Positions 26,893 through 45,503 of a stretch of DNA of 63,861 nt are shown piece after piece. Made by a program: the position numbers and the translations under genes. Source of the DNA: an uncultured Candidatus Saccharibacteria bacterium. GTDB lineage: Bacteria; Patescibacteriota; Dojkabacteria; J137. The notes under the pieces were generated by a model, which made no database searches, was not told where the DNA came from, and was given only the letters and a program-made list of their open reading frames with translations. The stretch is taken from assembly GCA_964414295.1 (NCBI GenBank), contig CAYPVU010000002.1:1-63861 (forward strand), read 5' to 3'. Each line of letters begins with the position of its first letter. Positions within the stretch are counted from its first letter, which is position 1.

Positions 26893-28080
26893 TTAGTCGC
26901 CTAGTGTTAAAGGTTTTTCTACATCTTCACTAAGCATTTCAATTGCTTCTCCAGTAATTTTATAAATATCTTTATCTATTTTTTTGTACTCAACTCTTGC
27001 ATCATTATATGCTCCTACCGCAGTTCCAAGATTCTTTCCTAACTTTGTCATATTAAGCTCAAAACTGGCTAAATGCTTTTGCAGTTTTTCTACATTGCTT
27101 TTAATCTCCATTGCTTGTTCTTCTATTTTTAAAGCATTTAATCCTTGTAGTACAGTTTGAAGATACGCTAAAAATGATGTAGGAGAAGTTATTATTACAT
27201 TCTTTTGTTTGAAAGCGTATTCAATTAAATCCGTTGTGCTTGTTTTTATAGTCCCTATTTGATTGATTAGTAAATCATAATAAATACCTTCCGATGGAAT
27301 AAACATAAAAGCGAACCCCATTGTTTTTTCATCTGGTCTAATATATTTAGATGTTTCGTCTATTCTATTCTTTAAATCTAATTTAAACATCTTTTCTAAT
27401 CTCAGTCTTTCTGTCTCATCTTTACATTCAACTATTTTATTGTAATTTTCTAACGAAAATTTTGAATCAATAGGTATTACTTTATCTTTTACAAATACAG
27501 CAGCGTCTACTATTTCTCCATTGCTGAATTTGTATTGCATTTGAAAGGATCCTGGAGGAAGTACATTTTTAAGTAATGTTTCTAAAAAGTATTCACCTAA
27601 AATCCCTCTTTGTTTCGGATTTTTTAAAATATTTTCTAAACTCTGTAATTGTTCAGCAAAACCTACTACTTGCTTATTAGTCTCATCTAATTTAGTAAGC
27701 TTTTCTGTAACTTCTTTAATAATTTTGCTGGCAGTATCGTTTGTGTCTTTCATACTTTTTTGTGCCATTTGAAATTGTTGTACTAAGCCTACATTTGATT
27801 TATTAAGCTGTTCGTTTAATGTTAGGTTCTGCTCTCTTAATCTTTCGTTCAACTCCTTTACTGTTCTGTCTAACTTTTCGTTTTGTTGTGAAGTTAAAGC
27901 ATTTATTTGATTTTGAAGTATTATTAGAGATTTATCTAGACCTTCATCTGATCCTTTTTTGCCTACTTTTTGAAAAAGCATAAAAACTGCACCAATTAAA
28001 ACAACTAGTAAAATTATTGCTATTATTATTAAAACATCCATATGTATTAAGTAAAACTGTAAACTTAACCATTCTATCAT
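26893..28080 (-). CDS. rmuC: DNA recombination protein RmuC
   Basis: TM plus coiled coil; KQRGILGE, IPIDSKFSLENY, FAFMFIPSEG. Confidence 0.93.
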   Translation of the reverse strand: MIEWLSLQFYLIHMDVLIIIAIILLVVLIGAVFMLFQKVGKKGSDEGLDKSLIILQNQINALTSQQNEKLDRTVKELNERLREQNLTLNEQLNKSNVGLVQQFQMAQKSMKDTNDTASKIIKEVTEKLTKLDETNKQVVGFAEQLQSLENILKNPKQRGILGEYFLETLLKNVLPPGSFQMQYKFSNGEIVDAAVFVKDKVIPIDSKFSLENYNKIVECKDETERLRLEKMFKLDLKNRIDETSKYIRPDEKTMGFAFMFIPSEGIYYDLLINQIGTIKTSTTDLIEYAFKQKNVIITSPTSFLAYLQTVLQGLNALKIEEQAMEIKSNVEKLQKHLASFELNMTKLGKNLGTAVGAYNDARVEYKKIDKDIYKITGEAIEMLSEDVEKPLTLGD

Positions 28081-28108
28081 AAGTATACCAAGGGGGATTT
28101 AAATGTTT

Positions 28109-28130
28109 AGGGAGCTAATAAAAGCTCCCT
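28109..28130 (-). terminator. hairpin terminator after orphan ORF 28143-28403
   Basis: AGGGAGCT-AATAAA-AGCTCCCT. Confidence 0.65.
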
Positions 28131-28142
28131 GTAGAAATTCGG

Positions 28143-28403
28143 TTACGCAAAAACCACTGGTCTAGGCAGCGGCTTGCTTTGTTTATACTCAGCAAGTTGG
28201 CTCAGAAGATCTTCGGGAGCGCAGCGTTCTGCGTTTTCCAATTTCGTCTGTGCCTGAAACCTTACCATCCCCGCCTCTTCGGCTGCCGAACCTGACCCGT
28301 TATGGGATCGGTGCAGATTTTGGGTTGCACACCAAAGCTCATCGTATAGAGCTTTTAGAGTGTCGATGGTTGTAGGTTCTTGAGCAAGTGTAGCGGTTGA
28401 CAT
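28143..28403 (-). CDS. small GC-rich orphan protein
   Basis: SD GAGGT upstream; TTGCCT...TAATAT promoter-like element; own terminator. Confidence 0.65.
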   Translation of the reverse strand: MSTATLAQEPTTIDTLKALYDELWCATQNLHRSHNGSGSAAEEAGMVRFQAQTKLENAERCAPEDLLSQLAEYKQSKPLPRPVVFA

Positions 28404-28487
28404 TAGTTTACCTCAATACTTAAAACCGAACTGCCTATATTAACACCTGTTATTTACTTTAGGCAACAGTTTTAATGGCTGACTAGG

Positions 28488-28510
28488 GTCTGGGGCTTAT
28501 CGCCCCAGAC
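28488..28510 (-). terminator. hairpin terminator after orphan ORF 28515-28808
   Basis: GTCTGGGGC-TTATC-GCCCCAGAC. Confidence 0.65.
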
Positions 28511-28514
28511 ATCT

Positions 28515-28808
28515 TTAATCTTCTAGAGGTTTTATGTAAAGCCTTGCTTCTTGAAAAGCGATGGCTACCTCTAGATTTTCTTTACCAAGTTCATCGAGCA
28601 TTCGTTGAAGTTTCTGTCTAAGCTGGGCTGCCTTTGCTTCCTCAGCTTTTACTACGTAGCCCGGAACTAGGTTTGCAATTACTGGACGCGGATCATTTGA
28701 ACCTTCTATAACAGATTCCGCGTTTTTTATAGCTGCCTCCACATACAAAAGCTCAAAAAGCTTTGCTAATTGTGGAGCCGTTAGCTGGTGCTTATATTCG
28801 GTGGTCAT
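28515..28808 (-). CDS. small helical orphan protein (start reassigned to the ATG at 28808)
   Basis: SD-like GAGGG precedes the in-frame ATG at 28808. Confidence 0.6.
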   Translation of the reverse strand: MTTEYKHQLTAPQLAKLFELLYVEAAIKNAESVIEGSNDPRPVIANLVPGYVVKAEEAKAAQLRQKLQRMLDELGKENLEVAIAFQEARLYIKPLED

Positions 28809-28921
28809 TTTGTGCCCTCTATATAAACGCAACAAATTATATCATTAAGATATACAATCTTATCTTTTATACCTAACTTTATTTAATTATGATAAACTTT
28901 CTTGTTTAGCAACAATACTTT

Positions 28922-29929
28922 ATGGAACAACTTTCAATAATTGCAGGGTTTACTATTTTATCTATGCTTGTTACAGCAGCTTATGCTCCTTTTTTAATAA
29001 AGCTTTTATACAGAATGCAGATTGTAGTAAGGCATACCTTAATGGGGAATAAGATGAACGAAGAATTTATGAAAATTCAGGGTCATAAATCTGGTACACC
29101 AACTTTAGGAGGTTTAATGATTTCTATTTCTGTAATGATATTAGTTTTGGTTTTTATTGAAGATTCAAGTTTAAAATGGTTGTTTTTGGTCTTTTGGGGA
29201 TTATTTACTCTTTATGGATTTATAGAAGGGATGATTGTATATGCAAGAAAACTAAGCGAAAGATTTAAGCTTATTGAGTCTAGCTTTGAGTGGAGATTAG
29301 GGAAGCTATTTTTGTTGTATCTTATTAGTTTATTTTCTGTTACAGCTACAACTTACTTTCTTAATATTACGCAAATTAATATTTTTGGCTTAAATATTGC
29401 TATTAACGTTTTTAGTGTTTTTATTGGTTCAATATTCTTTGTATTGGCCATGTATGCTATGGAAATTACAGATGGAGCCGATGGTTTAGTTACAGGTCAA
29501 TTTATAATTGCAGTCCTTTCATATTTAGTAATTAGTATTGTAAAAGGTAATAATGATTTATTGCCTATTTTGTCTATGATATTAGGAGCATGTCTTGTTT
29601 ATTTATATTTTAATATCAATCCTGCACGTGTATTTATGGGGGGGACGGGTACTTTTCCAGTTGCATTCTCTATTCTATTAGCTTCTATAATTACTAATAC
29701 TGTAGATATTTTATTAATAATTGGAATCATCTTTTGGACTGAATTAGCAACTAGTACATTACAAATTCTTTGGATAAAAATATTTAAAAAAAGATTATTT
29801 AAAATTGCACCTTTTCATCATTATTTTGAATCTATTGGGTGGCCAGAAACTAAAATGGTGCAAAGATTCTGGTTATTTTCTGCAATTTTTGCAGTAATAG
29901 CTTTATGGATATTTAGTTTAATAAAATAA
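28922..29929 (+). CDS. mraY: phospho-N-acetylmuramoyl-pentapeptide transferase
   Basis: Motifs KSGTPTLGG, ITDGADGL, FNINPARVFMG, APFHHYFE, WPETKMV. Confidence 0.92.
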   Translation: MEQLSIIAGFTILSMLVTAAYAPFLIKLLYRMQIVVRHTLMGNKMNEEFMKIQGHKSGTPTLGGLMISISVMILVLVFIEDSSLKWLFLVFWGLFTLYGFIEGMIVYARKLSERFKLIESSFEWRLGKLFLLYLISLFSVTATTYFLNITQINIFGLNIAINVFSVFIGSIFFVLAMYAMEITDGADGLVTGQFIIAVLSYLVISIVKGNNDLLPILSMILGACLVYLYFNINPARVFMGGTGTFPVAFSILLASIITNTVDILLIIGIIFWTELATSTLQILWIKIFKKRLFKIAPFHHYFESIGWPETKMVQRFWLFSAIFAVIALWIFSLIK

Positions 29930-29931
29930 TG

Positions 29932-30441
29932 TTATATCCATGTATCATCTATATGTTCTAAGAAGCTATCTTCTTTAAATATATTAAAGTGTTTATTGTA
30001 GGTTTTGAATAATTCAATTACTGTCTTATAGAAGTCATTTACAAGGTCATGATCTACTTTTGCAAATGCTTTATCTAGTCTTTCTTCTGCATCTCTGTGT
30101 ACAAATATATTTCTATACTTAATAAGCATATTTAATCTTTGATATAAATCGTCTTTTTCGTGAATTATTTCTTTAGGATGATTTTTTGATATTTTAGGCA
30201 GAATTATTATTCTATTTTTAATAGAAATTCTTTCTAAATACTCGTAGTTAATTACATAAGTATATCCAAAGTCATTAATAAAGCTTTCAAGTGCAAGTTC
30301 TATAAGTATAAGACAGTTTATTAAATAAACTTTTCTATGTTCACTTATGTATTTGGAATTATTTTTAGATGGATCTGATTTTTCGAATTGTTCTTTAGCA
30401 AGATCGATGTACTTCTTATATAACTTTTTATCTGTATTCAT
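29932..30441 (-). CDS. stand-alone HEPN-like (Rx4H) putative RNase
   Basis: All-helical 169 aa with ELALESFIN and LIKYRNIFVH (codons 30097-30114). Confidence 0.6.
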   Translation of the reverse strand: MNTDKKLYKKYIDLAKEQFEKSDPSKNNSKYISEHRKVYLINCLILIELALESFINDFGYTYVINYEYLERISIKNRIIILPKISKNHPKEIIHEKDDLYQRLNMLIKYRNIFVHRDAEERLDKAFAKVDHDLVNDFYKTVIELFKTYNKHFNIFKEDSFLEHIDDTWI

Positions 30442-30493
30442 TAATTAAGAAAATATATTATCTCTTAATTATACTCTACTCCTTAAAAATGCG

Positions 30494-30517
30494 AAAAGGC
30501 GGACCTACGGTCCGCCT
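30494..30517 (-). terminator. minus-strand intrinsic terminator
   Basis: Minus strand reads AGGCGGACC-GTA-GGTCCGCCT followed by TTT. Confidence 0.8.
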
Positions 30518-31565
30518 CAGTAATCTCGTCAAAGTACCATGGGTATGCTGGAATAATAGGGTCCAGCCTTTGACGAGTATAATACCCTTTCTCGAACCAA
30601 TATTTGTTCGAGGCGAGTTTATCGGTTTCTCGCTCCGTCAATTTAGTCAACGCCAATACATTAGGGCGTTGACGAGCATTTAAATGCTACAAATTAAAAA
30701 CAATTATTTCTAATTTGCAAAATTTAAATTGTTTCCTCCGGCAACTTTTATAATGTTGCCGGAGGTTCTAGTACCAATAAGGCACTAATTCTTAAGAACT
30801 TTTTATCCCCCATGGTTGCCCAGAGGGAGCTCTTGCTGCCGTCACTAAGGACGGCTTAAGAAAACAGTATTCTCTTAAGTCGTCTTTAGATAATTGTTAA
30901 AGTGATCGGTGGTTCGGGCAATGCCCGAACCACCTTTTGTCTCGACCAGGTTTATCAAAAAGTCCTCCCGGCTAATGCCGGATCCGCCGTGCAGCAGGAA
31001 TGGGACGCGGCGATGTGCCGTCCCTCAGCGCGGTTGCCCGCTGCCATGACCCGCGGCGATTGCCGGGAGGAGGGATTTTGGCTCCCTTTAGCTAAAAGCT
31101 ATTGGGAGCTAACCTATTCGAAAATCTAACATCGCTTGCTCCTTTCGTAAGCATTTTTCGCGATGTCCAATAAAATGTGCTAGGGACGCGCCAGTGACCA
31201 TTAGGTCCGCCCAGGTCCCTGCGAGCACTTTAAAAAACATTTAGTATTTTCTTAAAGTGCCCCACATTTCTATTTTCTTTTTAAAGTGCAGTGGGGGGAT
31301 TTGGCTCCTCTCCCCAGCTTTTTCAGAGGGTCCAATAAATAAGGTTGGTAAAAGCCTTACGGCTTATCCCGCGGCATGTTCGACATGCTTACTCCTTTTT
31401 AATAAAGGCCCAATATTCCGTCCCTACGGTTCGCGTTTCGTGGACGGGACTCTTGCCTCTAGAGAATTCTCTCCTTTCCGCTCTCGCGTAAAGAGGTTTG
31501 AGTCATTTAAAAAGAATAACCTTCTTAAATGACCCCTCTAGATACTATTGCTTATAAATGAACTA
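30494..31565 (-). ncRNA. candidate large structured non-coding RNA (or two or three tandem RNAs) of unrecognised class
   Basis: GC-rich, no credible long ORF, more than 10 perfect stems, GNRA loops on the minus strand, consensus promoter upstream and terminator downstream. Confidence 0.6.
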
Positions 31566-31570
31566 TATCT

Positions 31571-31599
31571 ATTATATAATATCTCTTTTGCTGTGTCAA
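31571..31599 (-). promoter_or_regulatory. perfect sigma70 consensus promoter
   Basis: Minus strand TTGACA (31599-31594), 17-nt spacer, TATAAT (31576-31571). Confidence 0.85.
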
Positions 31600-31608
31600 C
31601 TGTTTCGG

Positions 31609-31645
31609 GTAACAGAAGAAAAGTTATATTTCTTCTGTTACTTTT
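31609..31645 (+). terminator. 13-bp hairpin with plus-strand T-tract
   Basis: GTAACAGAAGAAA-AGTTATA-TTTCTTCTGTTAC-TTTT. Confidence 0.6.
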
Positions 31646-31779
31646 GTTGGTAAGTAAGGTAATAAGATATTGTGTTTTGTAACCTTATACCTATATTTGA
31701 CCTTACCTGTTGGTCTTTGTCTCTTGCTATAAAAGCTAATAATGCCCATAGACAAGATTACGGCAACTATTTCGTGCAT
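31624..31779 (-). CDS. unlisted 51-aa small protein (hydrophobic N-terminus, basic tail)
   Basis: Hand translation MHEIVAVILSMGIISFYSKRQRPTGKVKYRYKVTKHNILLPYLPTKVTEEI; consensus promoter upstream. Confidence 0.45.
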   Translation of the reverse strand: MHEIVAVILSMGIISFYSKRQRPTGKVKYRYKVTKHNILLPYLPTKVTEEI

Positions 31780-31848
31780 ATATATAACTTAATAACTATT
31801 CTATGGACTGTGCACGTTTTATACTAAGTATTTTGTCCATACGCGCGA

Positions 31849-31876
31849 ATTATATAACGAGATAGGTATCTGTCAA
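31849..31876 (-). promoter_or_regulatory. sigma70 consensus promoter
   Basis: Minus strand TTGACA (31876-31871), 16-nt spacer, TATAAT (31854-31849). Confidence 0.75.
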
Positions 31877-31971
31877 TACTTTTAAATAACTTGACTTTAT
31901 TTTCTTCCTATGAATGTAATAGAAGCTGCCTACATTGCCTGTTATAATTACAGCGTTTATTAATCAAAACC

Positions 31972-33909
31972 ATGTCAAATAATCAAAATATTAGAAACTT
32001 TTGCATAATTGCCCATATTGATCACGGTAAATCTACATTAGCAGATAGACTTATTGAATTTACTGGTGCAGTATCCTCAAGAGAAATGAAGGATAGAATG
32101 TTAGATACTTTAGAATTAGAGCAAGAAAGAGGTATAACAATAAAACTGCAGACTGCAAGACTAAAGTATAAGTATACTAAGGATAATGCCGAAAAGGGGG
32201 ATTATATTTTAAATTTAATTGATACTCCCGGGCACGTAGATTTTAGTTACGAGGTATCTAGATCTGTAGCTGCCAGTGAAGGATGTTTGTTGCTAGTGGA
32301 TGCAACTCAAGGGGTACAAGCTCAAACTTTAACTACTGTTTATAAAGCTATGGAATATGATTTAAAAATCATTCCTGTAATTAATAAAATTGATATGGAT
32401 ATTGCTGAGGTTGAAAGAACTAAGCAGGAGATGATCGAAACTTTTGGATTTAGTGAGGATGAAATTATAATGGCATCAGGTAAATCTGGAATAGGTGTTG
32501 AAGAAATTTTAGATGCAATTGTAGAAAGAATTCCGCCTTATAAAAAAGACAATACAAAGATTCTTGCAGAAGATGATGAGCTAGCAATTCTTAATGGCGA
32601 AGACATTACAGCAACAAAAGCCTTAATATTTGATGCTTTTTTTCATGAATATAAAGGTGTAACAGCTTTAGTAAAAGTAATTAGTGGGGAAATCAAAAAG
32701 GGACAAAAGATTTACTTTATTGGGACTCAAACAGATGTTCAACCAATTGAAATAGGTTACTTATTGCCTAGAATGACTGAAGGAACCTCTATAAAAGAAG
32801 GTGAAGTAGGTTACATTGCTACGGGGTTAAAAGATATTCACAAAGTACATTCAGGAGATACAATTACACTATTCCACTCTAATCAGGATCATATAAAAAT
32901 TGAACCTCTTAAAGGGTATAGACAGCCAAAGCCAATGGTATATGCTAGTTTGTATCCCGTAGAAGCAAGTGATTATGAAAATTTTAAAGAAGCTTTAGAA
33001 AAGTTGTCTTTAAATGATGCGGCTTTAACCTATCAAAAAGAATATTCCCAGGCTTTAGGTACAGGATTTGTTTGTGGATTTTTAGGATTGCTACATTTAG
33101 AAATTACACAAGATAGATTAGAAAGAGAACATAATATCGATTTAATAAGTACTACACCAACTGTAGAATTTAGAGTGCTTTTATCTACTAAGGATTACTC
33201 AAAAGTTCCAAATATTAATGTTTCTAATATAGATACTGATACTAATATTGCAACAATTAGAACTGCAGCTGAATTCCCAGACGGAAGCTTATACGATGAA
33301 GTATATGAGCCCTGGGTAAAGCTCGATATTATTACTCCAGAAGAATACATCGGTCCTATAATGGAGCTTTGTCAAAATAGAAGAGGTATTTATAAGCACA
33401 TGAACTTTTTGAATAAATCCGGCAATAAAAATCATGCAATGATTGAATATGAAATGCCTACAGTAGAAATTATTGTAAACTTTTTTGATAAATTAAAATC
33501 AATTAGTCATGGATATGCTTCCATGGACTATTCTTTACTAGAATATAGAAAGGGCGATATTGTAAAGGTTGCAATATTAGTGAATGGAGAATCTGCTGAG
33601 TCTCTGAGCTTTTTAACTCATAGAAATAATGCAGAAAGAAGAGGAAGGGAAATGGCAGCTAAACTTAAAGAATTGATTCCAAGGCAGCAATTTAGAGTTC
33701 CTATACAGGCAGCAATTGGAGGGCAAGTTATTGCAAGAGAAACTATTGATGCTTTTAGAAAAGATGTTTTAGCAAAGCTTTATGGAGGTGACGTTACAAG
33801 AAAGCTGAAATTATTAGAAAAGCAAAAGAAAGGTAAAAAGAAAATGAAGGCTATTGGGAGCGTCGAAATTCCAAAAGAAGCATTTATGGCTGCATTAAAA
33901 ATAGACTGA
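31972..33909 (+). CDS. lepA: translation elongation factor 4
   Basis: Motifs IAHIDHGKSTLADR, DTPGHVDF, GFLGLLHLE, KLYGGDVTRK. Confidence 0.98.
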   Translation: MSNNQNIRNFCIIAHIDHGKSTLADRLIEFTGAVSSREMKDRMLDTLELEQERGITIKLQTARLKYKYTKDNAEKGDYILNLIDTPGHVDFSYEVSRSVAASEGCLLLVDATQGVQAQTLTTVYKAMEYDLKIIPVINKIDMDIAEVERTKQEMIETFGFSEDEIIMASGKSGIGVEEILDAIVERIPPYKKDNTKILAEDDELAILNGEDITATKALIFDAFFHEYKGVTALVKVISGEIKKGQKIYFIGTQTDVQPIEIGYLLPRMTEGTSIKEGEVGYIATGLKDIHKVHSGDTITLFHSNQDHIKIEPLKGYRQPKPMVYASLYPVEASDYENFKEALEKLSLNDAALTYQKEYSQALGTGFVCGFLGLLHLEITQDRLEREHNIDLISTTPTVEFRVLLSTKDYSKVPNINVSNIDTDTNIATIRTAAEFPDGSLYDEVYEPWVKLDIITPEEYIGPIMELCQNRRGIYKHMNFLNKSGNKNHAMIEYEMPTVEIIVNFFDKLKSISHGYASMDYSLLEYRKGDIVKVAILVNGESAESLSFLTHRNNAERRGREMAAKLKELIPRQQFRVPIQAAIGGQVIARETIDAFRKDVLAKLYGGDVTRKLKLLEKQKKGKKKMKAIGSVEIPKEAFMAALKID

Positions 33910-33921
33910 TAGAAAAAGTTA

Positions 33922-33951
33922 GAGGCGGTCTGCACAAAGTGCAGCCGCCTC
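33922..33951. terminator. hairpin terminator between lepA and the orphan cluster
   Basis: GAGGCGG(T)CTGCAC-AAA-GTGCAGCCGCCTC. Confidence 0.75.
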
Positions 33952-33955
33952 GTTG

Positions 33956-34384
33956 TTATGGATTGATGCAGAGAAAATCTCCATCTCTTGTCCATCCAGC
34001 CTGCTGAGCAGGAGGTACGCCTTCTGCTGTCACGCAGAGAGTGTCATCCACCCCAACTGGAATGGTCTGACCACCCACCTGCAATGTAGCAGACGATCCG
34101 TTCACAGTGAAGGTGAATCCCGTAGGATCCGCCATCCACCGATCCCTTGTCCCATTCTGGTGGCGAACCTGTACGTCCACCCGCCCAACAGGCGGAATGT
34201 CCGTTCCCGGAATGTTTGTGGGCATTATCTGTCTACCCGTCCCCATATCTGTGCCTCTGCGAAGCGAGATGGCAGTCGATGCGATGAGAACCAGTACCAA
34301 CAGAATCACCCCGATGATGAGCAGTCGCCGGCAACCCCGACGCCAGCTCTTTTTCTTAGTGCTAGTCTGAGCCATTTCTGACAT
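33956..34384 (-). CDS. GC-rich small membrane-anchored protein with two Cys
   Basis: Basic N-terminus, long hydrophobic helix, beta-rich ectodomain; SD-like GAGAGG. Confidence 0.7.
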   Translation of the reverse strand: MSEMAQTSTKKKSWRRGCRRLLIIGVILLVLVLIASTAISLRRGTDMGTGRQIMPTNIPGTDIPPVGRVDVQVRHQNGTRDRWMADPTGFTFTVNGSSATLQVGGQTIPVGVDDTLCVTAEGVPPAQQAGWTRDGDFLCINP

Positions 34385-34447
34385 CCTCTCTGTTGTCCAA
34401 GACTAATAACATTACAACATATATAGCAGTTATATTTTTAGATATGT

Positions 34448-34477
34448 AAAAGGGGACGCCTAACGGCGTCCCCTTTT
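34448..34477. terminator. intrinsic terminator
   Basis: AAAAGGGGACGCC-TAAC-GGCGTCCCCTTTT. Confidence 0.85.
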
Positions 34478-34478
34478 G

Positions 34479-34802
34479 TTAAGGAGTGAAGGAGTCTGCT
34501 CTGAAGCACCCGTTTTCGGGGTTCTCCTCGTCCAGCTCTGCTCTCGCATGTAGCTGGTAGTATACCCTGTTTAGCGGGACGCACACCTCGTCTTCGCCGC
34601 TTAAGCGAAGCTCGAAGTTTGTGCCGGCTGTTACGCGCAGCACGGTGTAATCCGCCGCTTGGTCAAACTCCACCAGTTCACCTTCTTCCAGCACCACTTG
34701 GTACTGGTAAGTAATTCCGCTTTGATAGTGAACTGAGAGTGTAACCTCAGGTGTTTGCACACCTCCAAACAGGGCAATTAAAAACAGCAGCCATTCGAAC
34801 AC
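34479..34802 (-). CDS. small secreted or anchored protein with two Cys (start reassigned to the GTG at 34802)
   Basis: AGGAGG SD 6 nt before the in-frame GTG; hydrophobic N-terminus. Confidence 0.7.
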   Translation of the reverse strand: MFEWLLFLIALFGGVQTPEVTLSVHYQSGITYQYQVVLEEGELVEFDQAADYTVLRVTAGTNFELRLSGEDEVCVPLNRVYYQLHARAELDEENPENGCFRADSFTP

Positions 34803-34888
34803 TTCGATTCCTCCTACTAAAAATAGCAATAAAATTATTATCTTATATACTGATTATATTCAATAGGGCGCCATTGGCGCCTTACTTT

Positions 34889-35239
34889 CTAGAAGTCTTC
34901 TACACTGTATCCTTCGTTAAGAAGACTTCCAATGCAGATTCTTTGATCAGGATCTAGTCCAATACTTCTATATTCTTCAAAGAATACCTCTAAACCTAAG
35001 GTACTATACAAACATAGCAATTCCCTTGGTTCTAATTCAAAGGTAAGTCTCTGTTGAATCCAGGTAATTTTACTGTAGTCAGCGTTAACCGAAAATGACG
35101 GTTCGCTATCTAAAGTAAATTCCTGTTTATAGATCCCTTCAATTTGTACCATTAATGATGAGGTAGGTCTTGCGGCGAATGCAAAGCCAATTACAGCAAT
35201 GATTATGATTGCTGCAAGTGCAATTACATATACTTTCAC
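34889..35239 (-). CDS. small secreted or anchored protein with two Cys
   Basis: TATAAT and AAGGAG SD upstream of the GTG; signal/TM N-terminus. Confidence 0.7.
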   Translation of the reverse strand: MKVYVIALAAIIIIAVIGFAFAARPTSSLMVQIEGIYKQEFTLDSEPSFSVNADYSKITWIQQRLTFELEPRELLCLYSTLGLEVFFEEYRSIGLDPDQRICIGSLLNEGYSVEDF

Positions 35240-35322
35240 GATGTCTCTCCTTCTTGGTAACTATATTATACCAAACTCCTATAAGTTAATAAATTTGATA
35301 TAATCTGTAGTTAAATCGTTTT

Positions 35323-36432
35323 ATGACTTTACTAGAAAATATAAATACAATTAAAGAGCGTATTGATGCAATTGTGGCTAAAAAGAATCTTAGCAAGCTC
35401 ATGTCAGAAAGGGATGAATTAGCCTCTAAAACTATGACTGATGGATTTTGGAGTAATAATGATGAAGCTCAAAAAACTATGCAGAAGTTAGGTGGGCTTA
35501 ATGAAGAGATTGCAGATGTAAACAACCTTGTAAAAGGTATTGAAGATATTCAGGAGCTTGCAGAAGACGATTCTGTAGCTTCAATAAAAGATCAGTCAGA
35601 AGAAGATACAAATGAAATCGCTCAAATGATTAGAGCTGGTTTAGGAGAGTTAGAGATGAAGGTAGAGGAAGTTGAACTTACTACTTTTTTAAGCGGTAAA
35701 TTTGATACTAATAATGCTATTGTTAAGATAATCGCTGGGCAGGGCGGTACAGAGGCATGTGATTGGGCTAGTATGGTTTTAAGAATGTATACCAGGTATG
35801 CTAATTCTAAAGGTTGGAACGTTTTAATTTTAGATAAGGTAGATGGTAATGAAGCTGGTATTGCAAGTGCAGAGCTTTTAATAGAGGGCAGATATGCATA
35901 TGGTTACTTAAAGCATGAGCATGGCACTCATAGATTGGTTAGAAATTCTCCATTTAATGCGCAGGGGTTAAGACAAACTTCTTTTGTAGGAGTTGAAGTA
36001 TTGCCAGAAGTAAATGAAGATATTGATATCGAAGTAAAAGACGAAGATTTAGAATTTAGTGCAGTAAGAAGTGGTGGTGCAGGAGGTCAGAATGTAAATA
36101 AAGTAGCTTCAAAAGTTAGAATTGTCCATAAACCTACAGGGATAGTAGTTGAATCTTCCAGTCAAAGAACGCAGCATGCCAATAGAGAGACAGCAATGAG
36201 ATTGTTGAAAGCAAGGTTGTACGAAATTGAAGAAGATAAGCAAAAAGCAGAAATGGCAAAGGCAAAAGGGGAGTATAAGATTGCAGGTTGGGGTAATCAA
36301 ATTAGAAACTATGTTTTACAACCATATAAATTGGTCAAGGACGTTAGAACGGAAGTAGAAACTCCTAATTCCGATGGTGTCCTTGACGGAGATATTCAGA
36401 TGTTTATTGATGCAGAAATAAGAATGCTTTAA
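35323..36432 (+). CDS. prfB: peptide chain release factor 2 (no programmed frameshift evident)
   Basis: SPF anticodon-mimic (RNSPFN) and GGQ motif; continuous ORF from the ATG. Confidence 0.95.
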
Positions 36433-41242: not shown

Positions 41243-43816
41243 ATGGATCCAGTAACTTTTCTTCTAATAATAATATTCTTTGTTGCGTTTACATTTGCAG
41301 CTAATATTGTTTTGCAAAGATATTACAACCTTCTAGTAAAAGTTAATGAGACAGTAGCAGATAAAGTAATATTAAAAATAGCCGTACCAGTAAGAAATGA
41401 TAAAAAAGCCTTAGCTGCAGAACAAATGTTTCAATCTTTGCACGGAATATTAAAGGGAGATAAATTAAGCAAGGATCATTACTCTTTTGAAATATTTGCT
41501 GCTAATCATGGTATATATTTTGTTGTAGTTTGCTCTAATAGATATAGACCATTTCTAGAAAATCAGATATATGCACAATACCCCGAGGCCCAAATAAATG
41601 TAGTCCCCGATTATGCAGTACTGCATCCTCTAGATAAAACAGCAGTTAGTGAATTAGTATTAGAAAAAGATTTCTTTTTACCAATTAGAACATTTACTAG
41701 TTTTGAAGTCGATCCCCTAGCTTCCATTACAAGTGCTGTTTCTAACTTAACTCCAGGATTTGAAGTTTGGATACAAGTATTATCAAGACCAATAAATAAT
41801 GAATGGCAAACAAAGGGAAAAGAATTTGTAGAAAAGATGAAGAATCAAAAGGATGCTGCTGGTAATAAAAAGGAACCGGATTCATCTGTGGTAGAAACGT
41901 TTGGAGATATTTCTAGAAAGTCAGATAAGGTTGGGTTTCAATTTAAAATAAGAATTGTAGGAAAAGGACCAGATGAAAATATTGTAAAAAGATTAGTTGA
42001 AGATACTGAAGCTTCTTTTAAGCAGTTTCAAACTACTAAGCTAAATAGTATTGTAAAACCTAAACCTAAAAAGAAAAATGCCTTAGAAAAATATTTGGAT
42101 GATTTAAATAAAAAAATTACCTTTTTTATAAGTGGTAAAAGATTGGGCGATAAAATTAACGGGATACAAAAATATCAGCTTAGATATTTAGATGAAAGGG
42201 AGAAAAATATTATTAATATTGAAGAATTAGCATCTTTGTATCACTTGCCTAATGAGTCTGTAAAAACTCCAAATGTTGCATGGGCTAAATCTAGAAAACT
42301 TGAATTTCCTTTAAACCTACCCGTCTTAAAGCAAGATCCATTACAAAATCAAGGAATAAGAGCTTTAGCATTGACAGATTATAGAAATATTCATTTACCT
42401 TTTGGGATAAAAGCTGAAGACAGAAGAAGACATATGTATTTACTAGGTAAAACTGGTACAGGTAAATCTACATTCTTAAAAAATATGATTGTTGGAGATA
42501 TTTTAGATGGAAATGGTTTAGCAGTATTAGATCCTCACGGTGACTTAGTAGAAGAAATTTTAGATTTAATTCCAGAGCATAGAATAAAAGATGTTATTTA
42601 TTTAGATCCTTCTGATGTAGAGTATCCAATTGGATTAAACATGTTAGATTTAAATGAGGGCGAAACTTTAGATTTACTTGCTGATGGTATTGTAAACGTA
42701 TTTAAAAAGTTTTTTGGAGAGATGAGTTGGGGGCCAAGACTTCAGCATTTACTTTATAATACTGTAGCTACTCTGCTTCACTGTCAGAACGTATCTTTAC
42801 TTGCTGTCTTAAGAATCTTAAACGATAAAAATTATAGAACCTTTTTATTAAAACAAGTAAAGGATCCATTCTTAATTAAATTCTGGGAAGAGGAATATGC
42901 TCAATTAAGTATAAATCCTAGATTGTTAGCAGAAGCGGTAGCCCCAATTCAAAATAAGGTAGGTAGATTCTTAGGATCTACAATGGTTAGAAATATGATC
43001 GGCCAAATTAAATCAAATGTAAATTTAGCCGATGTAATGAATTCGGGTAAGATTTTATTAGTAAATCTGTCACAAGGAAAAATTGGAGAAGAAAGTTCTT
43101 CGCTTCTTGGAGCTATGATTGTAACAAGATTGTATTCAAATGCTATGCAAAGGGCCAGAATGGCTAAAGAAGATAGAAGAGACTTTTACTTATATGTAGA
43201 TGAATTTCAGAATTTTGCAACAGAGTCATTTATTAAGATATTATCGGAAGCTAGAAAGTATGGGTTAAATCTTATTGTAACTCATCAGTATATAGATCAA
43301 ATTGATCCTAAAATTCAAGATGCTATCTTTGGTAACATTGGTACTTTAATGAATTATGTTGTAAGTCAAAAAGATGGGGGCAGATTAGAAAAAGAATATA
43401 CCCCATACTTAGGTGTAGAAGATTTAGTAAATTTAGATAAGTACAGAATTGCAATGAAAATGACTGTGGATATGGCTCAAACCCCTCCATTTACTGCAAT
43501 TGCTATGAAGCCAAGCTACTATACTTATGGTTTAAAAGATCAAGTTAAAGAGTTTTGTAGGAAAACCTATGCAAAGCCTAGAGCTGAGGTAGAATTAAAA
43601 CTTAATAAATGGGCAAGCCAGTTATACGATAAGCAAGGTAATTTAGTACAAAGAAATCCAGATGGATCTTTACCTACTGGTGTTACTACACCAGCCCAAC
43701 AAATTGAAGCTGCCGCAGCTGCTCCAGCATATCCAAAAAAGAAGAAAAAGAAACCTAACAAACCAAATTCTGGTGGAAATAGTCAGCCTCAAAATTCTAA
43801 CCAACCTACAAAATAA
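41243..43816 (+). CDS. VirD4/TraD/TrwB-like P-loop ATPase (coupling-protein family)
   Basis: N-terminal TM; RRRHMYLLGKTGTGKST; LYVDEFQNF; SEARKYGL.L.VTHQY. Confidence 0.88.
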   Translation: MDPVTFLLIIIFFVAFTFAANIVLQRYYNLLVKVNETVADKVILKIAVPVRNDKKALAAEQMFQSLHGILKGDKLSKDHYSFEIFAANHGIYFVVVCSNRYRPFLENQIYAQYPEAQINVVPDYAVLHPLDKTAVSELVLEKDFFLPIRTFTSFEVDPLASITSAVSNLTPGFEVWIQVLSRPINNEWQTKGKEFVEKMKNQKDAAGNKKEPDSSVVETFGDISRKSDKVGFQFKIRIVGKGPDENIVKRLVEDTEASFKQFQTTKLNSIVKPKPKKKNALEKYLDDLNKKITFFISGKRLGDKINGIQKYQLRYLDEREKNIINIEELASLYHLPNESVKTPNVAWAKSRKLEFPLNLPVLKQDPLQNQGIRALALTDYRNIHLPFGIKAEDRRRHMYLLGKTGTGKSTFLKNMIVGDILDGNGLAVLDPHGDLVEEILDLIPEHRIKDVIYLDPSDVEYPIGLNMLDLNEGETLDLLADGIVNVFKKFFGEMSWGPRLQHLLYNTVATLLHCQNVSLLAVLRILNDKNYRTFLLKQVKDPFLIKFWEEEYAQLSINPRLLAEAVAPIQNKVGRFLGSTMVRNMIGQIKSNVNLADVMNSGKILLVNLSQGKIGEESSSLLGAMIVTRLYSNAMQRARMAKEDRRDFYLYVDEFQNFATESFIKILSEARKYGLNLIVTHQYIDQIDPKIQDAIFGNIGTLMNYVVSQKDGGRLEKEYTPYLGVEDLVNLDKYRIAMKMTVDMAQTPPFTAIAMKPSYYTYGLKDQVKEFCRKTYAKPRAEVELKLNKWASQLYDKQGNLVQRNPDGSLPTGVTTPAQQIEAAAAAPAYPKKKKKKPNKPNSGGNSQPQNSNQPTK

Positions 43817-43880
43817 TCTTAATTTGATTTTCCTTTCTTAAGAGTTATAATCCATATGCACATAAGTAAAGGAGCTTTTT

Positions 43881-44066
43881 ATGAGCGACAGCAAATTTGG
43901 TGAAGGAAATCAGGTGATCCTGACTACTCCACCTCCGCCACCTCATATACCTTCATCTGTACAAATGCTTCCTCCTTTTAAAGGTGAAGCAGGCGGTAGT
44001 AAAGATACTACTGATGACGGTCTAACTGACGAAGAGCGTGAAGCTCACGAAAGTTATGGCGGATAA
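43881..44066 (+). CDS. small orphan protein (Pro-rich and acidic)
   Basis: TTGATT-16-TATAAT, SD AAGGAG, terminator 44074-44103. Confidence 0.6.
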   Translation: MSDSKFGEGNQVILTTPPPPPHIPSSVQMLPPFKGEAGGSKDTTDDGLTDEEREAHESYGG

Positions 44067-44073
44067 CCTTTAC

Positions 44074-44103
44074 TTAAGCGGGACAGCTTGCCGTCCCGCT
44101 TAA
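44074..44103 (+). terminator. hairpin terminator
   Basis: TTAAGCGGGAC-AGCTTGCC-GTCCCGCTTAA. Confidence 0.7.
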
Positions 44104-44161
44104 ACTTTTAAACTTTCTACTAATTGCTATAATTAAATTACCTAAAACTGAGAGGTGTTGA

Positions 44162-44371
44162 ATGGGTCCTAATAGTGAAAGCTCGCAAGAACGTTCTACA
44201 AGGGAAGTAATGGAAGCACTATCGTCTATTTCTGCAGATTGTGTAGAAGGAGACGATGTTCCAACTCGCAGAATTCTTGCAAAACATCAAGGCAAGCACC
44301 AAACTCAAAGAAGGAAAGAAAGACCTGAAGAAAATATTGAAACATACGAAAATTATTCAGGTCTGTATTAG
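44162..44371 (+). CDS. small orphan protein
   Basis: TATAAT and SD GAGGTG upstream; hairpin with a TTCG loop after the stop. Confidence 0.55.
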   Translation: MGPNSESSQERSTREVMEALSSISADCVEGDDVPTRRILAKHQGKHQTQRRKERPEENIETYENYSGLY

Positions 44372-44415
44372 AATAGGGCGCCTTCGGCACCCACTACATT
44401 TGTCACCGTTTTCTG

Positions 44416-44444
44416 TTGACTTTGTTATATTGCTGTAATATAAT
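44416..44444 (+). promoter_or_regulatory. sigma70-type promoter
   Basis: TTGACT-17-TATAAT. Confidence 0.75.
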
Positions 44445-44495
44445 AAAAGCAATCCCGAATGACTCGGGTAAAAATGAATTAAGGAGTTTTTTGAA

Positions 44496-44708
44496 ATGGC
44501 AGCTAACGAAGTCACCCATGATGATGTTGTTCGTCGCTCCAAGTTTCGCACTACGCCGAAGACGGGTTTTACCCCCGCTCAGCGGAAAGCTGCATTGCAG
44601 CGCGGACAGGATGCCCTGCATCAGGACGATGCGAATGACATCGTGGATGATACTGCCGATGAAGAAGTCGTCGAGCCGGAAGGCGAAAACGGCGTTGACT
44701 GGCTCTAG
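44496..44708 (+). CDS. small GC-rich orphan protein (basic N-half, acidic C-half)
   Basis: SD AAGGAG; own promoter and terminator (44724-44752). Confidence 0.65.
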   Translation: MAANEVTHDDVVRRSKFRTTPKTGFTPAQRKAALQRGQDALHQDDANDIVDDTADEEVVEPEGENGVDWL

Positions 44709-44723
44709 CTAGTCTCAACTCCC

Positions 44724-44752
44724 AAGGGCGGAACCAAATGTTCCGCCCTTTT
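44724..44752 (+). terminator. intrinsic terminator
   Basis: AAGGGCGGAAC-CAAAT-GTTCCGCCCTTTT. Confidence 0.85.
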
Positions 44753-44842
44753 GCATTTTTATAAACTACACATACAAAAATCCTATAGTAATTTTATGTA
44801 TAATTCTATTGCACTAATTTTTTATTGTGATATCATCTTTGT

Positions 44843-45016
44843 ACCTCTCAGAACAACGAGGGGATTATCGGTCCTACAAGGAGACGAGCCGGCATGAAGA
44901 ACCTGAATAACAACAAGTAACAGGCGCACATGTCAGCCGGGTGACGATGTTCCCGGCGCCCGCTAACCCGTAAGGGTTCCATAATTACAGATGGTGTGGG
45001 TTATCCTACACCATCT
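44843..45016 (+). ncRNA. candidate ~170-nt structured RNA or mini-ORF transcript
   Basis: TTGCAC-16-(TG)TATCAT promoter at 44809-44836; hairpins GCCGGG/CCCGGC and AACCC-GTAA-GGGTT; terminal hairpin 44989-45016. Confidence 0.45.
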
Positions 45017-45113
45017 CAACACTTTCTTATACCAGTATCCTAATGTTATAATTCACTACTCGCATAAGAGTCCTATTGTTTTTGTCTATAGGGTCAACTA
45101 AAGGAGTTCGGTA

Positions 45114-45311
45114 GTGGCAAACTGTCCGCGGTGCCAAATGAAAGTTAAAAAGGGGAAGAAGATCAAGATCTATCGGTGTCCACATTGTGGAAAAATCGTT
45201 GGTCATAAAGGTGATGGCGATTGTACCGGTAATATCAAAGATTGCATCCCTGAGCGACACGGTCATCATTACAATCTCGAGTTAGCCTATGAGATTGAAG
45301 GTGAAGATTAA
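45114..45311 (+). CDS. small zinc-ribbon protein
   Basis: CPRC...CPHC plus additional Cys/His; SD AAGGAG before the GTG. Confidence 0.7.
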   Translation: MANCPRCQMKVKKGKKIKIYRCPHCGKIVGHKGDGDCTGNIKDCIPERHGHHYNLELAYEIEGED

Positions 45312-45330
45312 CGGCTGGACCGTTATACCA

Positions 45331-45356
45331 AAACGGGTCACGCAAGTGACCCGTTT
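45331..45356. terminator. hairpin terminator
   Basis: AAACGGGTCAC-GCAA-GTGACCCGTTT. Confidence 0.8.
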
Positions 45357-45378
45357 AAGCTTTTGATTATATTCACAC

Positions 45379-45449
45379 CTCGGGGTCAGGGACTCGAACC
45401 CCAATTAACAGTTCCAGAGACTGTCGTCCTACCATTAGACGAACCCCGA
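45379..45449 (-). tRNA. tRNA-Gln (anticodon CUG)
   Basis: Reverse complement TCGGGGTTCGTCTAATGGTAGGACGACAGTCTCTGGAACTGTTAATTGGGGTTCGAGTCCCTGACCCCGAG folds as a cloverleaf. Confidence 0.93.
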
Positions 45450-45503
45450 AGTATAAATACAATCTTTAAAGAAACAGTTGAAATTATAGCTCAAGCCATA
45501 CTC

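Follow-up and report, generated by a model that had tools for sequence, protein, structure and literature searches.

A GC-rich island in an otherwise AT-rich genome raised the question of whether a stretch of about 1 kb without a credible protein-coding frame is a gene for a large structured RNA. The island lies in a window of 63,861 nucleotides (contig CAYPVU010000002.1, assembly GCA_964414295.1), whose LepA is closest to Candidatus Dojkabacteria, a CPR lineage. The sequence-only reading had proposed a structured non-coding RNA on the minus strand, possibly of an undescribed large class in CPR. We first examined whether the sequence features hold. The island contained 45% GC against about 31% for the window, no ORF exceeded 91 aa, and all six frames were full of stops. 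Two SD+AUG mini-ORFs, read by eye (7-12 and 9-35 aa), were not conserved in length or sequence, so neither a coding nor a pseudogene reading was retained. A promoter matching the consensus at 12 of 12 positions lies at the 5' end, and a hairpin followed by a U-tract lies at the 3' end. The seven stems proposed for the RNA were all exactly complementary, and both proposed GNRA hairpins were present on the minus strand. The AT-rich stretch at 30680-30730, which had been suspected to be a gap that could split the element into separate RNAs, is not a gap but a 21-bp AU-rich hairpin that is strongly conserved in sequence in two subgroups of homologues (A and B). This hairpin did not pass the scan criteria for an internal promoter.

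Table 1. Features of the RNA locus and its neighbours, in window coordinates.
Coordinates	Strand	Feature	Details
31849..31876	-	Promoter P1, upstream of the small ORF	TTGACA-16-TATAAT; 12/12 match
31624..31779	-	51-aa small protein gene	N-terminal hydrophobic helix followed by a basic tail (SKRQRPTGKVKYRYKV...); co-oriented with the RNA and directly upstream of it
31607..31643	-	Hairpin over the stop codon of the small ORF	No U-tract follows on the minus strand; conserved in L083
31571..31599	-	Promoter P2	TTGACA-17-TATAAT; 12/12 match; predicted transcription start about 31564
30494..31564	-	Structured ncRNA (about 1,071 nt)	From the predicted start to the end of the terminator U-tract
30460-31546		GC-rich island	
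31455..31545	-	Module M1, long 5' stem-loop	31535-31521/31514-31500, extended by 31545-31536/31464-31455
31352..31365	-	GNRA-capped hairpin	AAGCC-GUAA-GGCUU (GCC-GAAA-GGC in L083)
31124..31270	-	Module M2, central core	Closing helix 31270-31263/31179-31172; AU-rich CUUUAAG hairpin 31262-31223; GC-rich three-way element 31220-31182; invariant CAUUUUAUUGG motif 31178-31168; helix 31171-31160/31135-31124 enclosing a GAAA loop
30963..31071	-	GC-rich multibranch domain	Closed by UCCUCCCGGC/GCCGGGAGGA
31030-31041	-	GNRA-capped hairpin within the multibranch domain	GCGG-GCAA-CCGC
30908..30934	-	12-bp hairpin	GGUGGUUCGGGC/GCCCGAACCACC
30680..30893	-	Module M3, 3' domain	CUUAAG hairpin 30879-30855; hairpin 30855-30838; CAUGGGGG element 30834-30794; hairpins 30788-30768 and 30765-30735; AU-rich 21-bp hairpin 30727-30680 (30727-30706/30701-30680)
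30520..30673	-	Variable 3' region	Hairpins 30673-30646, 30637-30609 and 30577-30525
30494..30518	-	Intrinsic terminator	GAGGCGGACC-GUAG-GGUCCGCC-UUUU; 10-bp GC stem
30468..30495	-	Promoter-like site for the downstream 169-aa gene	TTCGCA-16-TATAAT; 10/12 match
29932..30441	-	169-aa HEPN-like protein gene	Clade-specific; immediately downstream of the RNA on the same strand
31502-10/31525-33		Perfect stem	
31225-33/31252-60		Perfect stem	
31129-35/31160-66		Perfect stem	
30964-72/31062-70		Perfect stem	
30908-19/30923-34		Perfect stem	
30735-45/30755-65		Perfect stem	
30525-34/30568-77		Perfect stem	

Next, we asked whether the RNA belongs to a known family. A covariance-model search of the whole window against Rfam 15 (which includes OLE, GOLLD, ROOL, HEARO, raiA, RNase P, tmRNA, 6S, SRP, group I/II introns and ribozymes) at the gathering threshold returned only 3 tRNAs. 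At E<=10, the region 27500-35500 gave only noise hits, the best being 24 bits against a 114-bit cut-off, and five homologue loci gave nothing in the RNA at E<=1. Comparison by blastn showed no similarity among the four GC-rich islands of the window, and the other three turned out to be small protein genes.

We searched for homologues. They occur at the same locus, between lepA and a GT4/169-aa gene pair, in seven other lineages of one Dojkabacteria clade (homologous and related loci are denoted here by L numbers, and the lineages fall into subgroups A to D). The family is confined to this narrow clade, in which LepA is at least about 86% identical. The two closest GTDB representatives (L001 and L002; LepA 77%) share no flanking genes and have no island. 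Nearest relatives outside the clade lack the RNA entirely, so it is dispensable at that scale. A metagenome pattern scan gave two true homologues (L097 and L098). A third hit (L096) was a chance match at the end of an apparent coding region in a 50% GC contig, followed, by our reading, by a ferredoxin-type ORF.

We then tested whether the predicted helices have been maintained by selection. Folding z-scores against dinucleotide shuffles were -6 to -12 for 30494-30950 and -4 for 31400-31570, but only -2 to -3 for 30950-31400; the decisive evidence is comparative. In subgroup A, 93.8% of cells were paired and 41 base pairs had changed on both sides and stayed paired, compared with 15.2+/-3.0 in shuffles (0/500) and 3-7 in slid controls. 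In subgroup B, the corresponding values were 90.9%, 53, 21.8+/-3.6 (0/500) and 5-9. Three helices were shared across A and B, with 14 of 51 pairs compensated. The covariation rests on only 8 distinct sequences from one narrow clade, and the consensus structures came from RNAalifold, which rewards covariation; however, a less circular test using single-sequence MFE structures still gave 29-31 doubly compensated pairs. In addition, four-fold codon sites were saturated (37-50% identity between the window and L083), whereas the whole stretch from the 169-aa gene to lepA, including the RNA, aligned at 71% with long invariant blocks. These results indicate purifying selection relative to the saturated synonymous sites.

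The gene signals were also conserved. TTGAC(A/T)-16/17-TATAAT followed by (A/G)ATATAG was found at P2 in six of the seven other lineages; L092 has a single promoter with an 18-nt spacer, and L102 keeps the TATAAT but no TTGAC(A/T) -35 was found there by the regular expression used. The terminator stem is rebuilt by compensatory changes, with a U-tract kept, in L083, L093, L098, L102 and L092, and the sequence tail UUCGCAUUU is conserved after the terminator.

Several comparisons assigned the structure to the minus strand. First, the MFE was about 30 kcal/mol lower on the minus sense in both the window and L083, and one-sided changes kept pairing more often (36:68 against 26:84). Second, the alifold energy was -321 against -287, and -146 against -132. 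Third, all four point substitutions in L081 were C-to-U on the minus strand, and one of them turns G-C into G-U in the 12-bp hairpin, which is valid only on that strand. Finally, GNRA-capped hairpins numbered 43 on the sense strand and 14 on the antisense strand, whereas shuffles gave about 2 per RNA. A possible plus-strand terminator at 30908-30934 was rejected, since its T-tract is not conserved in L083.

We considered whether the region might have no RNA function and instead represent DNA-level palindromes (protein-binding or recombination sites), a decaying mobile element, or a degraded GC-rich foreign gene. Many stems are perfect, two hairpin loops are inverted between strains, showing DNA-level hairpin recombination, the neighbouring islands are small genes that look horizontally acquired, and the island is absent from the next relatives. 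However, the G-U pairs (78 against 11 A-C cells), the GNRA strand bias and the energy asymmetry are RNA-specific and strand-specific. In addition to the conservation described above, no similarity to phages, plasmids or the other islands was found by blastn, no pattern hits were found in IMG/VR, and no repeats occurred elsewhere in the window. This explanation therefore appears very unlikely.

Comparison among relatives showed that the RNA is modular. In M1, 5 pairs changed on both sides between the window and L083, and an equivalent 5' hairpin is present in subgroups B, C and D. The loop of the GNRA-capped hairpin AAGCC-GUAA-GGCUU stays GNRA after substitution. M2 contains a nearly invariant 48-nt block between the window and L083, and its UUAU(U/A)GG motif is invariant across six lineages; this core is present in A, L093, L098, C (L092) and D, and absent in L102. 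The multibranch domain is the least well supported (79-92% of cells paired). Read by eye, its closing helix is kept in L083 with a U-A to A-U swap, although the covariation count scored no both-sides change there because MAFFT shifts this stretch. The 12-bp hairpin has 3 compensatory pairs in L083. M3 is shared by subgroups A and B. Its CUUAAG hairpin, a 10-bp stem with a conserved G-U, occurs once in the window (0.04 matches expected by chance) and 0-4 times per RNA in relatives; the wobble is present in 11 of 13 copies and would be A-C on the other strand. In the variable 3' region, hairpin positions are kept but sequences are replaced in L083, and the region is much longer in L093, L098 and L104.

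This modularity raised the possibility that the transcript is a precursor cut, for example by RNase III at its long perfect 15-22-bp AU-rich hairpins, into several independent structured RNAs. L102 lacks M2, L092 keeps M2 but lacks M3, and L104 has four CUUAAG hairpins, a pattern that fits a set of separable elements at least as well as one integrated fold. Most supported helices are local hairpins, and several are long near-perfect duplexes (31535-31500, 31262-31223, 30879-30855 and 30727-30680). Conversely, only one promoter and one terminator frame the whole region in every lineage, no internal terminators or promoters are conserved, and some longer-range helices are kept (31270-63/31179-72 and 31071-62/30972-63). 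We regard the precursor model as possible but unlikely, and the concern of the sequence-only reading that the element might comprise separable RNAs is not excluded.

Two clade-specific protein genes flank the RNA. The upstream small ORF is a real gene: it is conserved in seven lineages, with nucleotide differences concentrated at third codon positions (e.g. 5/4/23), and was called by gene callers in relatives. P1, as TTGAC(A/T)-16-TATAAT, is conserved in all seven lineages that carry the small ORF. The ORF sits upstream of the RNA in seven of eight RNA-bearing lineages and is never found without it. L092, the one lineage lacking the ORF, also lacks every CUUAAG hairpin, although this link rests on a single loss event. 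Because no U-tract follows the terminal hairpin of the ORF, read-through from P1 into the RNA is plausible, and we therefore asked whether the RNA could be a long structured 3' UTR or cis element of the mRNA of the small ORF, which lies 60 nt upstream, stabilising or regulating the peptide's transcript. Against this, a full-consensus promoter is conserved between the ORF and the RNA, L092 keeps a promoter, an RNA and a terminator but no ORF, and 1 kb of sequence-conserved, GNRA-rich structure is far more than mRNA stabilisation needs. We consider this reading improbable.

The downstream 169-aa protein has an invariant YRNIFVHRD (Rx4H) motif. It gave a weak DUF3644 hit below the Pfam cut-off and a PDB sequence hit to a HepN toxin at E=0.37, and its AF2 model (pLDDT 83) gave HEPN toxins as top Foldseek hits (prob 0.95-0.99, E about 0.1); the HEPN assignment is therefore weak. 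Searches for wider families of the small ORF and the 169-aa protein found only 2 and 8 clusters, all within this clade. Given the order of promoter, structured RNA, terminator and putative RNase gene on the same strand, we investigated whether the RNA could be an antitoxin or regulator that binds and neutralises, or is processed by, the 169-aa protein, as in a type III toxin-antitoxin (ToxIN-like) layout. The order RNA, terminator, 169-aa gene is found in the window, L081-L083, L098, L102, L103 and lineage D, no MNT-type antitoxin gene lies beside the protein gene, and the RNA and the protein are restricted to the same clade. However, L093, L104 and L092 carry the RNA without the gene, and L099 carries the gene with only 164 nt of AT-rich spacer and no RNA. 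Tandem Repeats Finder returned 0 rows at score 30, only dispersed hairpin copies being present, the protein is HEPN-like rather than ToxN/AbiQ-like, and a 1-kb antitoxin RNA has no precedent. This arrangement is thus a doubtful explanation.

Taken together, these results support a large structured non-coding RNA gene of about 1.07 kb on the minus strand, although the transcript itself, from P2 and probably also by read-through from P1, and its high expression are inferred without expression data. With only slightly better than even confidence, we infer that this independent gene encodes an RNA that acts in trans as a scaffold or decoy. The sequence-conserved CUUAAG hairpins and the invariant single-stranded motif would bind a protein partner, the 5' stem-loop would be protective, and the GNRA loops would build tertiary or higher-order structure. 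The most likely partner is the co-transcribed 51-aa peptide, in which no RNA-binding domain is demonstrated; the 169-aa protein is a neighbour not shown to be a partner. This would give a membrane-tethered ribonucleoprotein analogous in logic to OLE RNA (RF01071) with OapA.

We compared the RNA with the closest known systems. Like OLE, it is a large, highly structured RNA of restricted phylogenetic range, predicted to be strongly expressed and encoded next to a small membrane protein gene in the same orientation. It differs in having no match to the OLE model, in its length (about 1.07 kb against about 0.6 kb), and in its neighbour, a 51-aa single-helix peptide with no Pfam hit rather than the multi-pass OapA, with no oapB or oapC equivalents; it is also modular and fast-evolving, whereas OLE appears to be highly conserved. 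With GOLLD and ROOL it shares a size of 0.6-0.8 kb or more, an ORF-free, GNRA-rich, multi-domain organisation, detection as a structured intergenic island and an unknown biochemical function. However, there was no covariance-model match and no phage or prophage context; the RNA sits at a fixed chromosomal locus flanked by lepA, GT4, rmuC and prfB. With protein-sponge RNAs of the CsrB/RsmZ type it shares the idea of one long RNA presenting multiple copies of a hairpin motif to titrate a protein, but GGA/AGGA motifs were not enriched (AGGA counts of 7, 8, 4, 8, 5, 7, 2 and 5 against 5.9, 5.5, 4.5, 5.3, 3.7, 7.3, 2.4 and 4.5 expected).

A more speculative and unlikely possibility is that this is a new class of giant (>1 kb) ornate RNA specific to episymbiotic CPR bacteria. 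It would fold into a defined tertiary or oligomeric architecture and assemble with the 51-aa membrane peptide, and possibly the adjacent HEPN-like RNase, into a membrane-tethered ribonucleoprotein. That would make it a CPR counterpart of OLE-, ROOL- or GOLLD-type particles with a variable number of protein-binding hairpin modules.

Large structured bacterial ncRNAs other than rRNA are rare, and none that we could find is described from CPR/Patescibacteria. At about 1.07 kb (up to about 1.6 kb in L104), this RNA would be longer than OLE, ROOL or GOLLD. Close relatives provide natural 'deletion mutants' with the core only, the 3' domain only or extra hairpins, and two clade-specific candidate protein partners lie next to the RNA. 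The locus also shows that GC-rich islands in AT-rich CPR genomes are heterogeneous: in this window, one island is an RNA gene and three are clusters of small, probably acquired protein genes.

The analysed segment is a roughly 31% GC bacterial chromosome segment, and its LepA is closest to Candidatus Dojkabacteria (Patescibacteria/CPR), with 77% identity to GTDB representatives and up to 92% to Logan assemblies. We first examined whether the GC-rich island I2 has the features of a structured non-coding RNA gene, as a sequence-only reading had proposed. The island has no ORF above 91 aa and has stops in all six frames. On the minus strand, it is framed by the promoter P2 and by a terminator. 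All the stems and both GNRA hairpins listed in the sequence-only reading were present exactly as described. To assess the folding, z-scores against dinucleotide shuffles were determined. The scores were -6 to -12 for 30494-30950 and -4 for 31400-31570, but only -2 to -3 for 30950-31400, indicating that thermodynamics alone would not settle the central part. The coordinates of the features are listed in the table below.

Features of the RNA locus and its surroundings (positions in the window unless another contig is named)
Feature	Position	Strand	Description
GC-rich island I1	28081-28921		
GC-rich island I2	30460-31546		45% GC
GC-rich island I3	33910-35322		
GC-rich island I4	43817-45503		
Small ORFs of the other three islands	28143-28403(-), 28515-28835(-); 33956-34384(-), 34479-34829(-), 34889-35239(-); 43881-45311(+)		60-142 aa; islands of 44-58% GC
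TrwB/VirD4-like coupling ATPase next to I4 and a tRNA gene	41243-43816 (+) and 45379-45449 (-)		
Promoter P1	31876-31849	-	12/12 match
51-aa ORF	31779-31624	-	hydrophobic helix plus the basic tail KRQRPTGKVKYRYKV
Promoter P2	31599-31571	-	12/12 match, TTGACA-17-TATAAT
Module M1	31545-31455	-	long 5' stem-loop
Module M2	31270-31124	-	core
Invariant motif of M2	31178-31168	-	CAUUUUAUUGG
Multibranch domain	31071-30963	-	GC-rich
Module M3	30893-30680	-	
Hairpin with replaced sequence	30673-30646	-	
Inverted hairpin loops (versus L081)	30506-30508 and 30655-30664		TAC/GTA; AATACATTAG/CTAATGTATT
Terminator	30518-30494	-	GC hairpin plus UUUU
Weaker promoter	30495-30468	-	
169-aa ORF	30441-29932	-	invariant RNIFVH (Rx4H) motif
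Mosaic divergence from L081	28081-31971 versus flanks		
Variant RNA in L092	L092 2505-3060	-	515 nt, 55% GC
Variant RNA in L104	L104 1074-2745	+	about 1.6 kb

We next compared I2 with its surroundings. The window has four GC-rich islands, which are not related to each other. I1, I3 and I4 contain small ORFs with ribosome-binding sites, promoters and terminators, several of them with a signal or TM segment. In I3, substitutions against a 96%-identical strain cluster at third codon positions. These three islands are protein-coding, and only I2 is non-coding. The content of the other islands differs between close relatives, as L083 has a single 133-aa ORF in place of I3 and L087 has none, and they look like acquired accessory genes. 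The coupling ATPase next to I4, which carries DUF8128 in the L083 orthologue, may be a remnant of, or mark a hotspot for, an integrative element. Reading the minus strand from upstream to downstream, the order at the I2 locus is P1, the 51-aa ORF, a hairpin without a U-tract, P2, the RNA, the terminator, the weaker promoter and the 169-aa ORF. The lepA gene is divergent from P1, and a GT4 glycosyltransferase gene is convergent with the 169-aa gene.

Exact-protein look-ups and a metagenome pattern scan recovered the same locus in related genomes, designated here by L numbers. Subgroup A comprises the window, L082 (99.98% identical), L081 (95.8%) and L083 (LepA 92%). Subgroup B comprises L093, L097/L098, L102, L103 (partial) and L104. 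Lineage D is represented by L090 plus L105, which overlap by 181 identical bases, and variant C by L092. The RNA is absent from L094 and L095 (LepA 80-81%), in which rmuC or other genes abut lepA, as well as from L099 (LepA 84%) and the GTDB representatives L001 and L002, indicating that the family is confined to a narrow clade. No match was found in Rfam 15, either in the window region (E<=10) or in five homologue loci (E<=1), and none was found in phage, plasmid or IMG/VR collections. Two literature searches found no described CPR large RNA.

To determine whether the region is under selection, we compared the window with L083. The four-fold degenerate sites of lepA, GT4, prfB and the 169-aa gene are only 37-50% identical, which is saturation. 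The stretch from the 169-aa gene to lepA, which includes the RNA, nevertheless aligns at 71% and contains invariant blocks of up to 48 nt. Between the window and L081, the divergence is mosaic: 0% in GT4 and the 169-aa gene, 0.2-1.5% in I1, I2 and the spacer, 3.5% in lepA, 9.3% in prfB and 13% in I3. This suggests a recent recombination tract covering the RNA locus.

Compensatory base-pair changes were then counted on RNAalifold consensus structures in subgroups A and B. Given that RNAalifold rewards covariation, we repeated the count with single-sequence MFE structures, and this still gave 29-31 doubly compensated pairs. Across both subgroups, three helices of the 3' domain are shared, with 14 of 51 pairs compensated. 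Some hairpins, such as 30673-30646, keep their position while their sequence is entirely replaced. In addition, between the window and L081, two strains that are 96% identical, the loops of two hairpins are exact reverse complements of each other. These are small DNA inversions across the inverted-repeat stems.

Base-pair conservation in the two subgroups
Measure	Subgroup A	Subgroup B (L093, L098, L102)
Pair cells that are standard pairs	93.8%	90.9%
Pairs changed on both sides and still paired	41	53
Same count in 500 shuffles	15.2+/-3.0 (0/500 reach it)	21.8+/-3.6 (0/500 reach it)
Same count in slid-partner controls	3-7	5-9
Cells paired in slid-partner controls	42-51%	36-48%

Since the sequence-only reading had cautioned that some G-U pairs fit the plus strand better, we wondered which strand is constrained. 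First, the minus sense folds about 30 kcal/mol better in both the window and L083, and it keeps pairing after one-sided changes more often (36:68 against 26:84). The consensus energies are -321 against -287, and -146 against -132. Second, all four point substitutions between the window and L081 are C-to-U on the minus strand, and one of them turns a G-C pair of the 12-bp hairpin into G-U. Third, a hairpin with a CUUAAG motif (consensus GACUUAAGUAAAUAnnGUUUAUUUAAGCC) carries a G-U wobble in 11 of 13 copies, which would be an A-C mismatch on the other strand. In addition, GNRA-capped hairpins number 43 on the sense strand and 14 on the antisense strand over eight RNAs, whereas shuffles give about 2 per RNA. 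The GAAAGG hexamer, from C-GAAA-G loops, is enriched 5- to 15-fold. Finally, P2 (TTGAC[A/T]-16/17-TATAAT followed by [A/G]ATATAG) is found in six of the seven other lineages; L092 has a single promoter with an 18-nt spacer, and L102 keeps the TATAAT without a pattern match to the -35. The terminator is kept in A, B and C. The concern about the plus strand is outweighed by these results. We consider it very unlikely that the region has no RNA function.

The RNA is modular. Following M1, the core M2 is built from an AU-rich CUUUAAG hairpin, a GC-rich three-way element, the invariant motif and a GAAA-capped helix. It is recognisable in A, L093, L098, C and D, but deleted in L102. The GC-rich multibranch domain is the least well supported part. 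M3 holds the CUUAAG hairpin, a CAUGGGG element, two hairpins and a 21-bp AU-rich hairpin whose sequence is conserved, and it is present in A and B but not in C. A variable region follows, and then the terminator. The RNA length varies widely, being about 515 nt in L092, 741 in L102, 1,071-1,148 in most, and about 1,600 in L104. The CUUAAG hairpin occurs 0, 1, 2 or 4 times per RNA. It occurs only once in the window, against 0.04 matches expected by chance, whereas L104 carries four, which suggests internal duplication of hairpin modules. L092, a close relative (LepA 88%), keeps at the same position the promoter, the terminator and its UUCGCAUUU tail, as well as the UUUAUUGG core. The body of its RNA is largely different but still very stable (z = -10.4), and neither the small ORF nor the 169-aa gene is present. 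A processed precursor of multiple RNAs is a possible alternative, though we rate it as unlikely.

The two neighbouring genes were examined as candidate partners. The 51-aa ORF is a real gene; it is conserved in seven lineages with third-position bias, and it encodes a hydrophobic helix followed by a basic tail, SRRQRPTGKVKYRYKV. Only 2 clusters were found in a collection of 5.8 billion proteins. The ORF always lies between P1 and P2, upstream of the RNA, and is never found without it; L092, which lacks it, also lacks all CUUAAG hairpins. That the RNA is merely a structured 3' UTR of this small ORF appears improbable. The 169-aa protein is restricted to the same clade (8 clusters). It is considered HEPN-like on the basis of an invariant YRNIFVHRD (Rx4H) motif, a sub-threshold DUF3644 hit, a weak PDB sequence hit to a HepN toxin, and an AF2 model (pLDDT 83) whose best Foldseek matches are HEPN toxins (prob 0.95-0.99, E about 0.1, TM 0.47-0.60). 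No MNT-type partner gene is adjacent. The protein accompanies the RNA in A, D, L098, L102 and L103, is missing in L093, L104 and L092, and stands alone between lepA and rmuC in L099. This decoupling in both directions weakens the possibility that the RNA is a type III-like antitoxin for the HEPN-like protein, which we regard as doubtful.

Given the evidence for a conserved, strand-specific, structurally constrained non-coding element with its own conserved promoter and terminator, we conclude with high confidence that I2 is a structured ncRNA gene, although its transcription is inferred. The sequence-conserved repeated hairpins, the invariant single-stranded motif and the abundance of GNRA loops led us to infer, as somewhat more likely than not, that the RNA works in trans as a protein-binding or self-assembling scaffold. 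The more specific idea, that the probably co-transcribed basic membrane peptide is the partner in an OLE/OapA-like manner, rests on linkage only and is tentative. The observation made from the sequence alone is confirmed, and its interpretation as a large structured RNA of an undescribed class is supported. These results identify an undescribed, clade-restricted, modular large ncRNA of unknown function.
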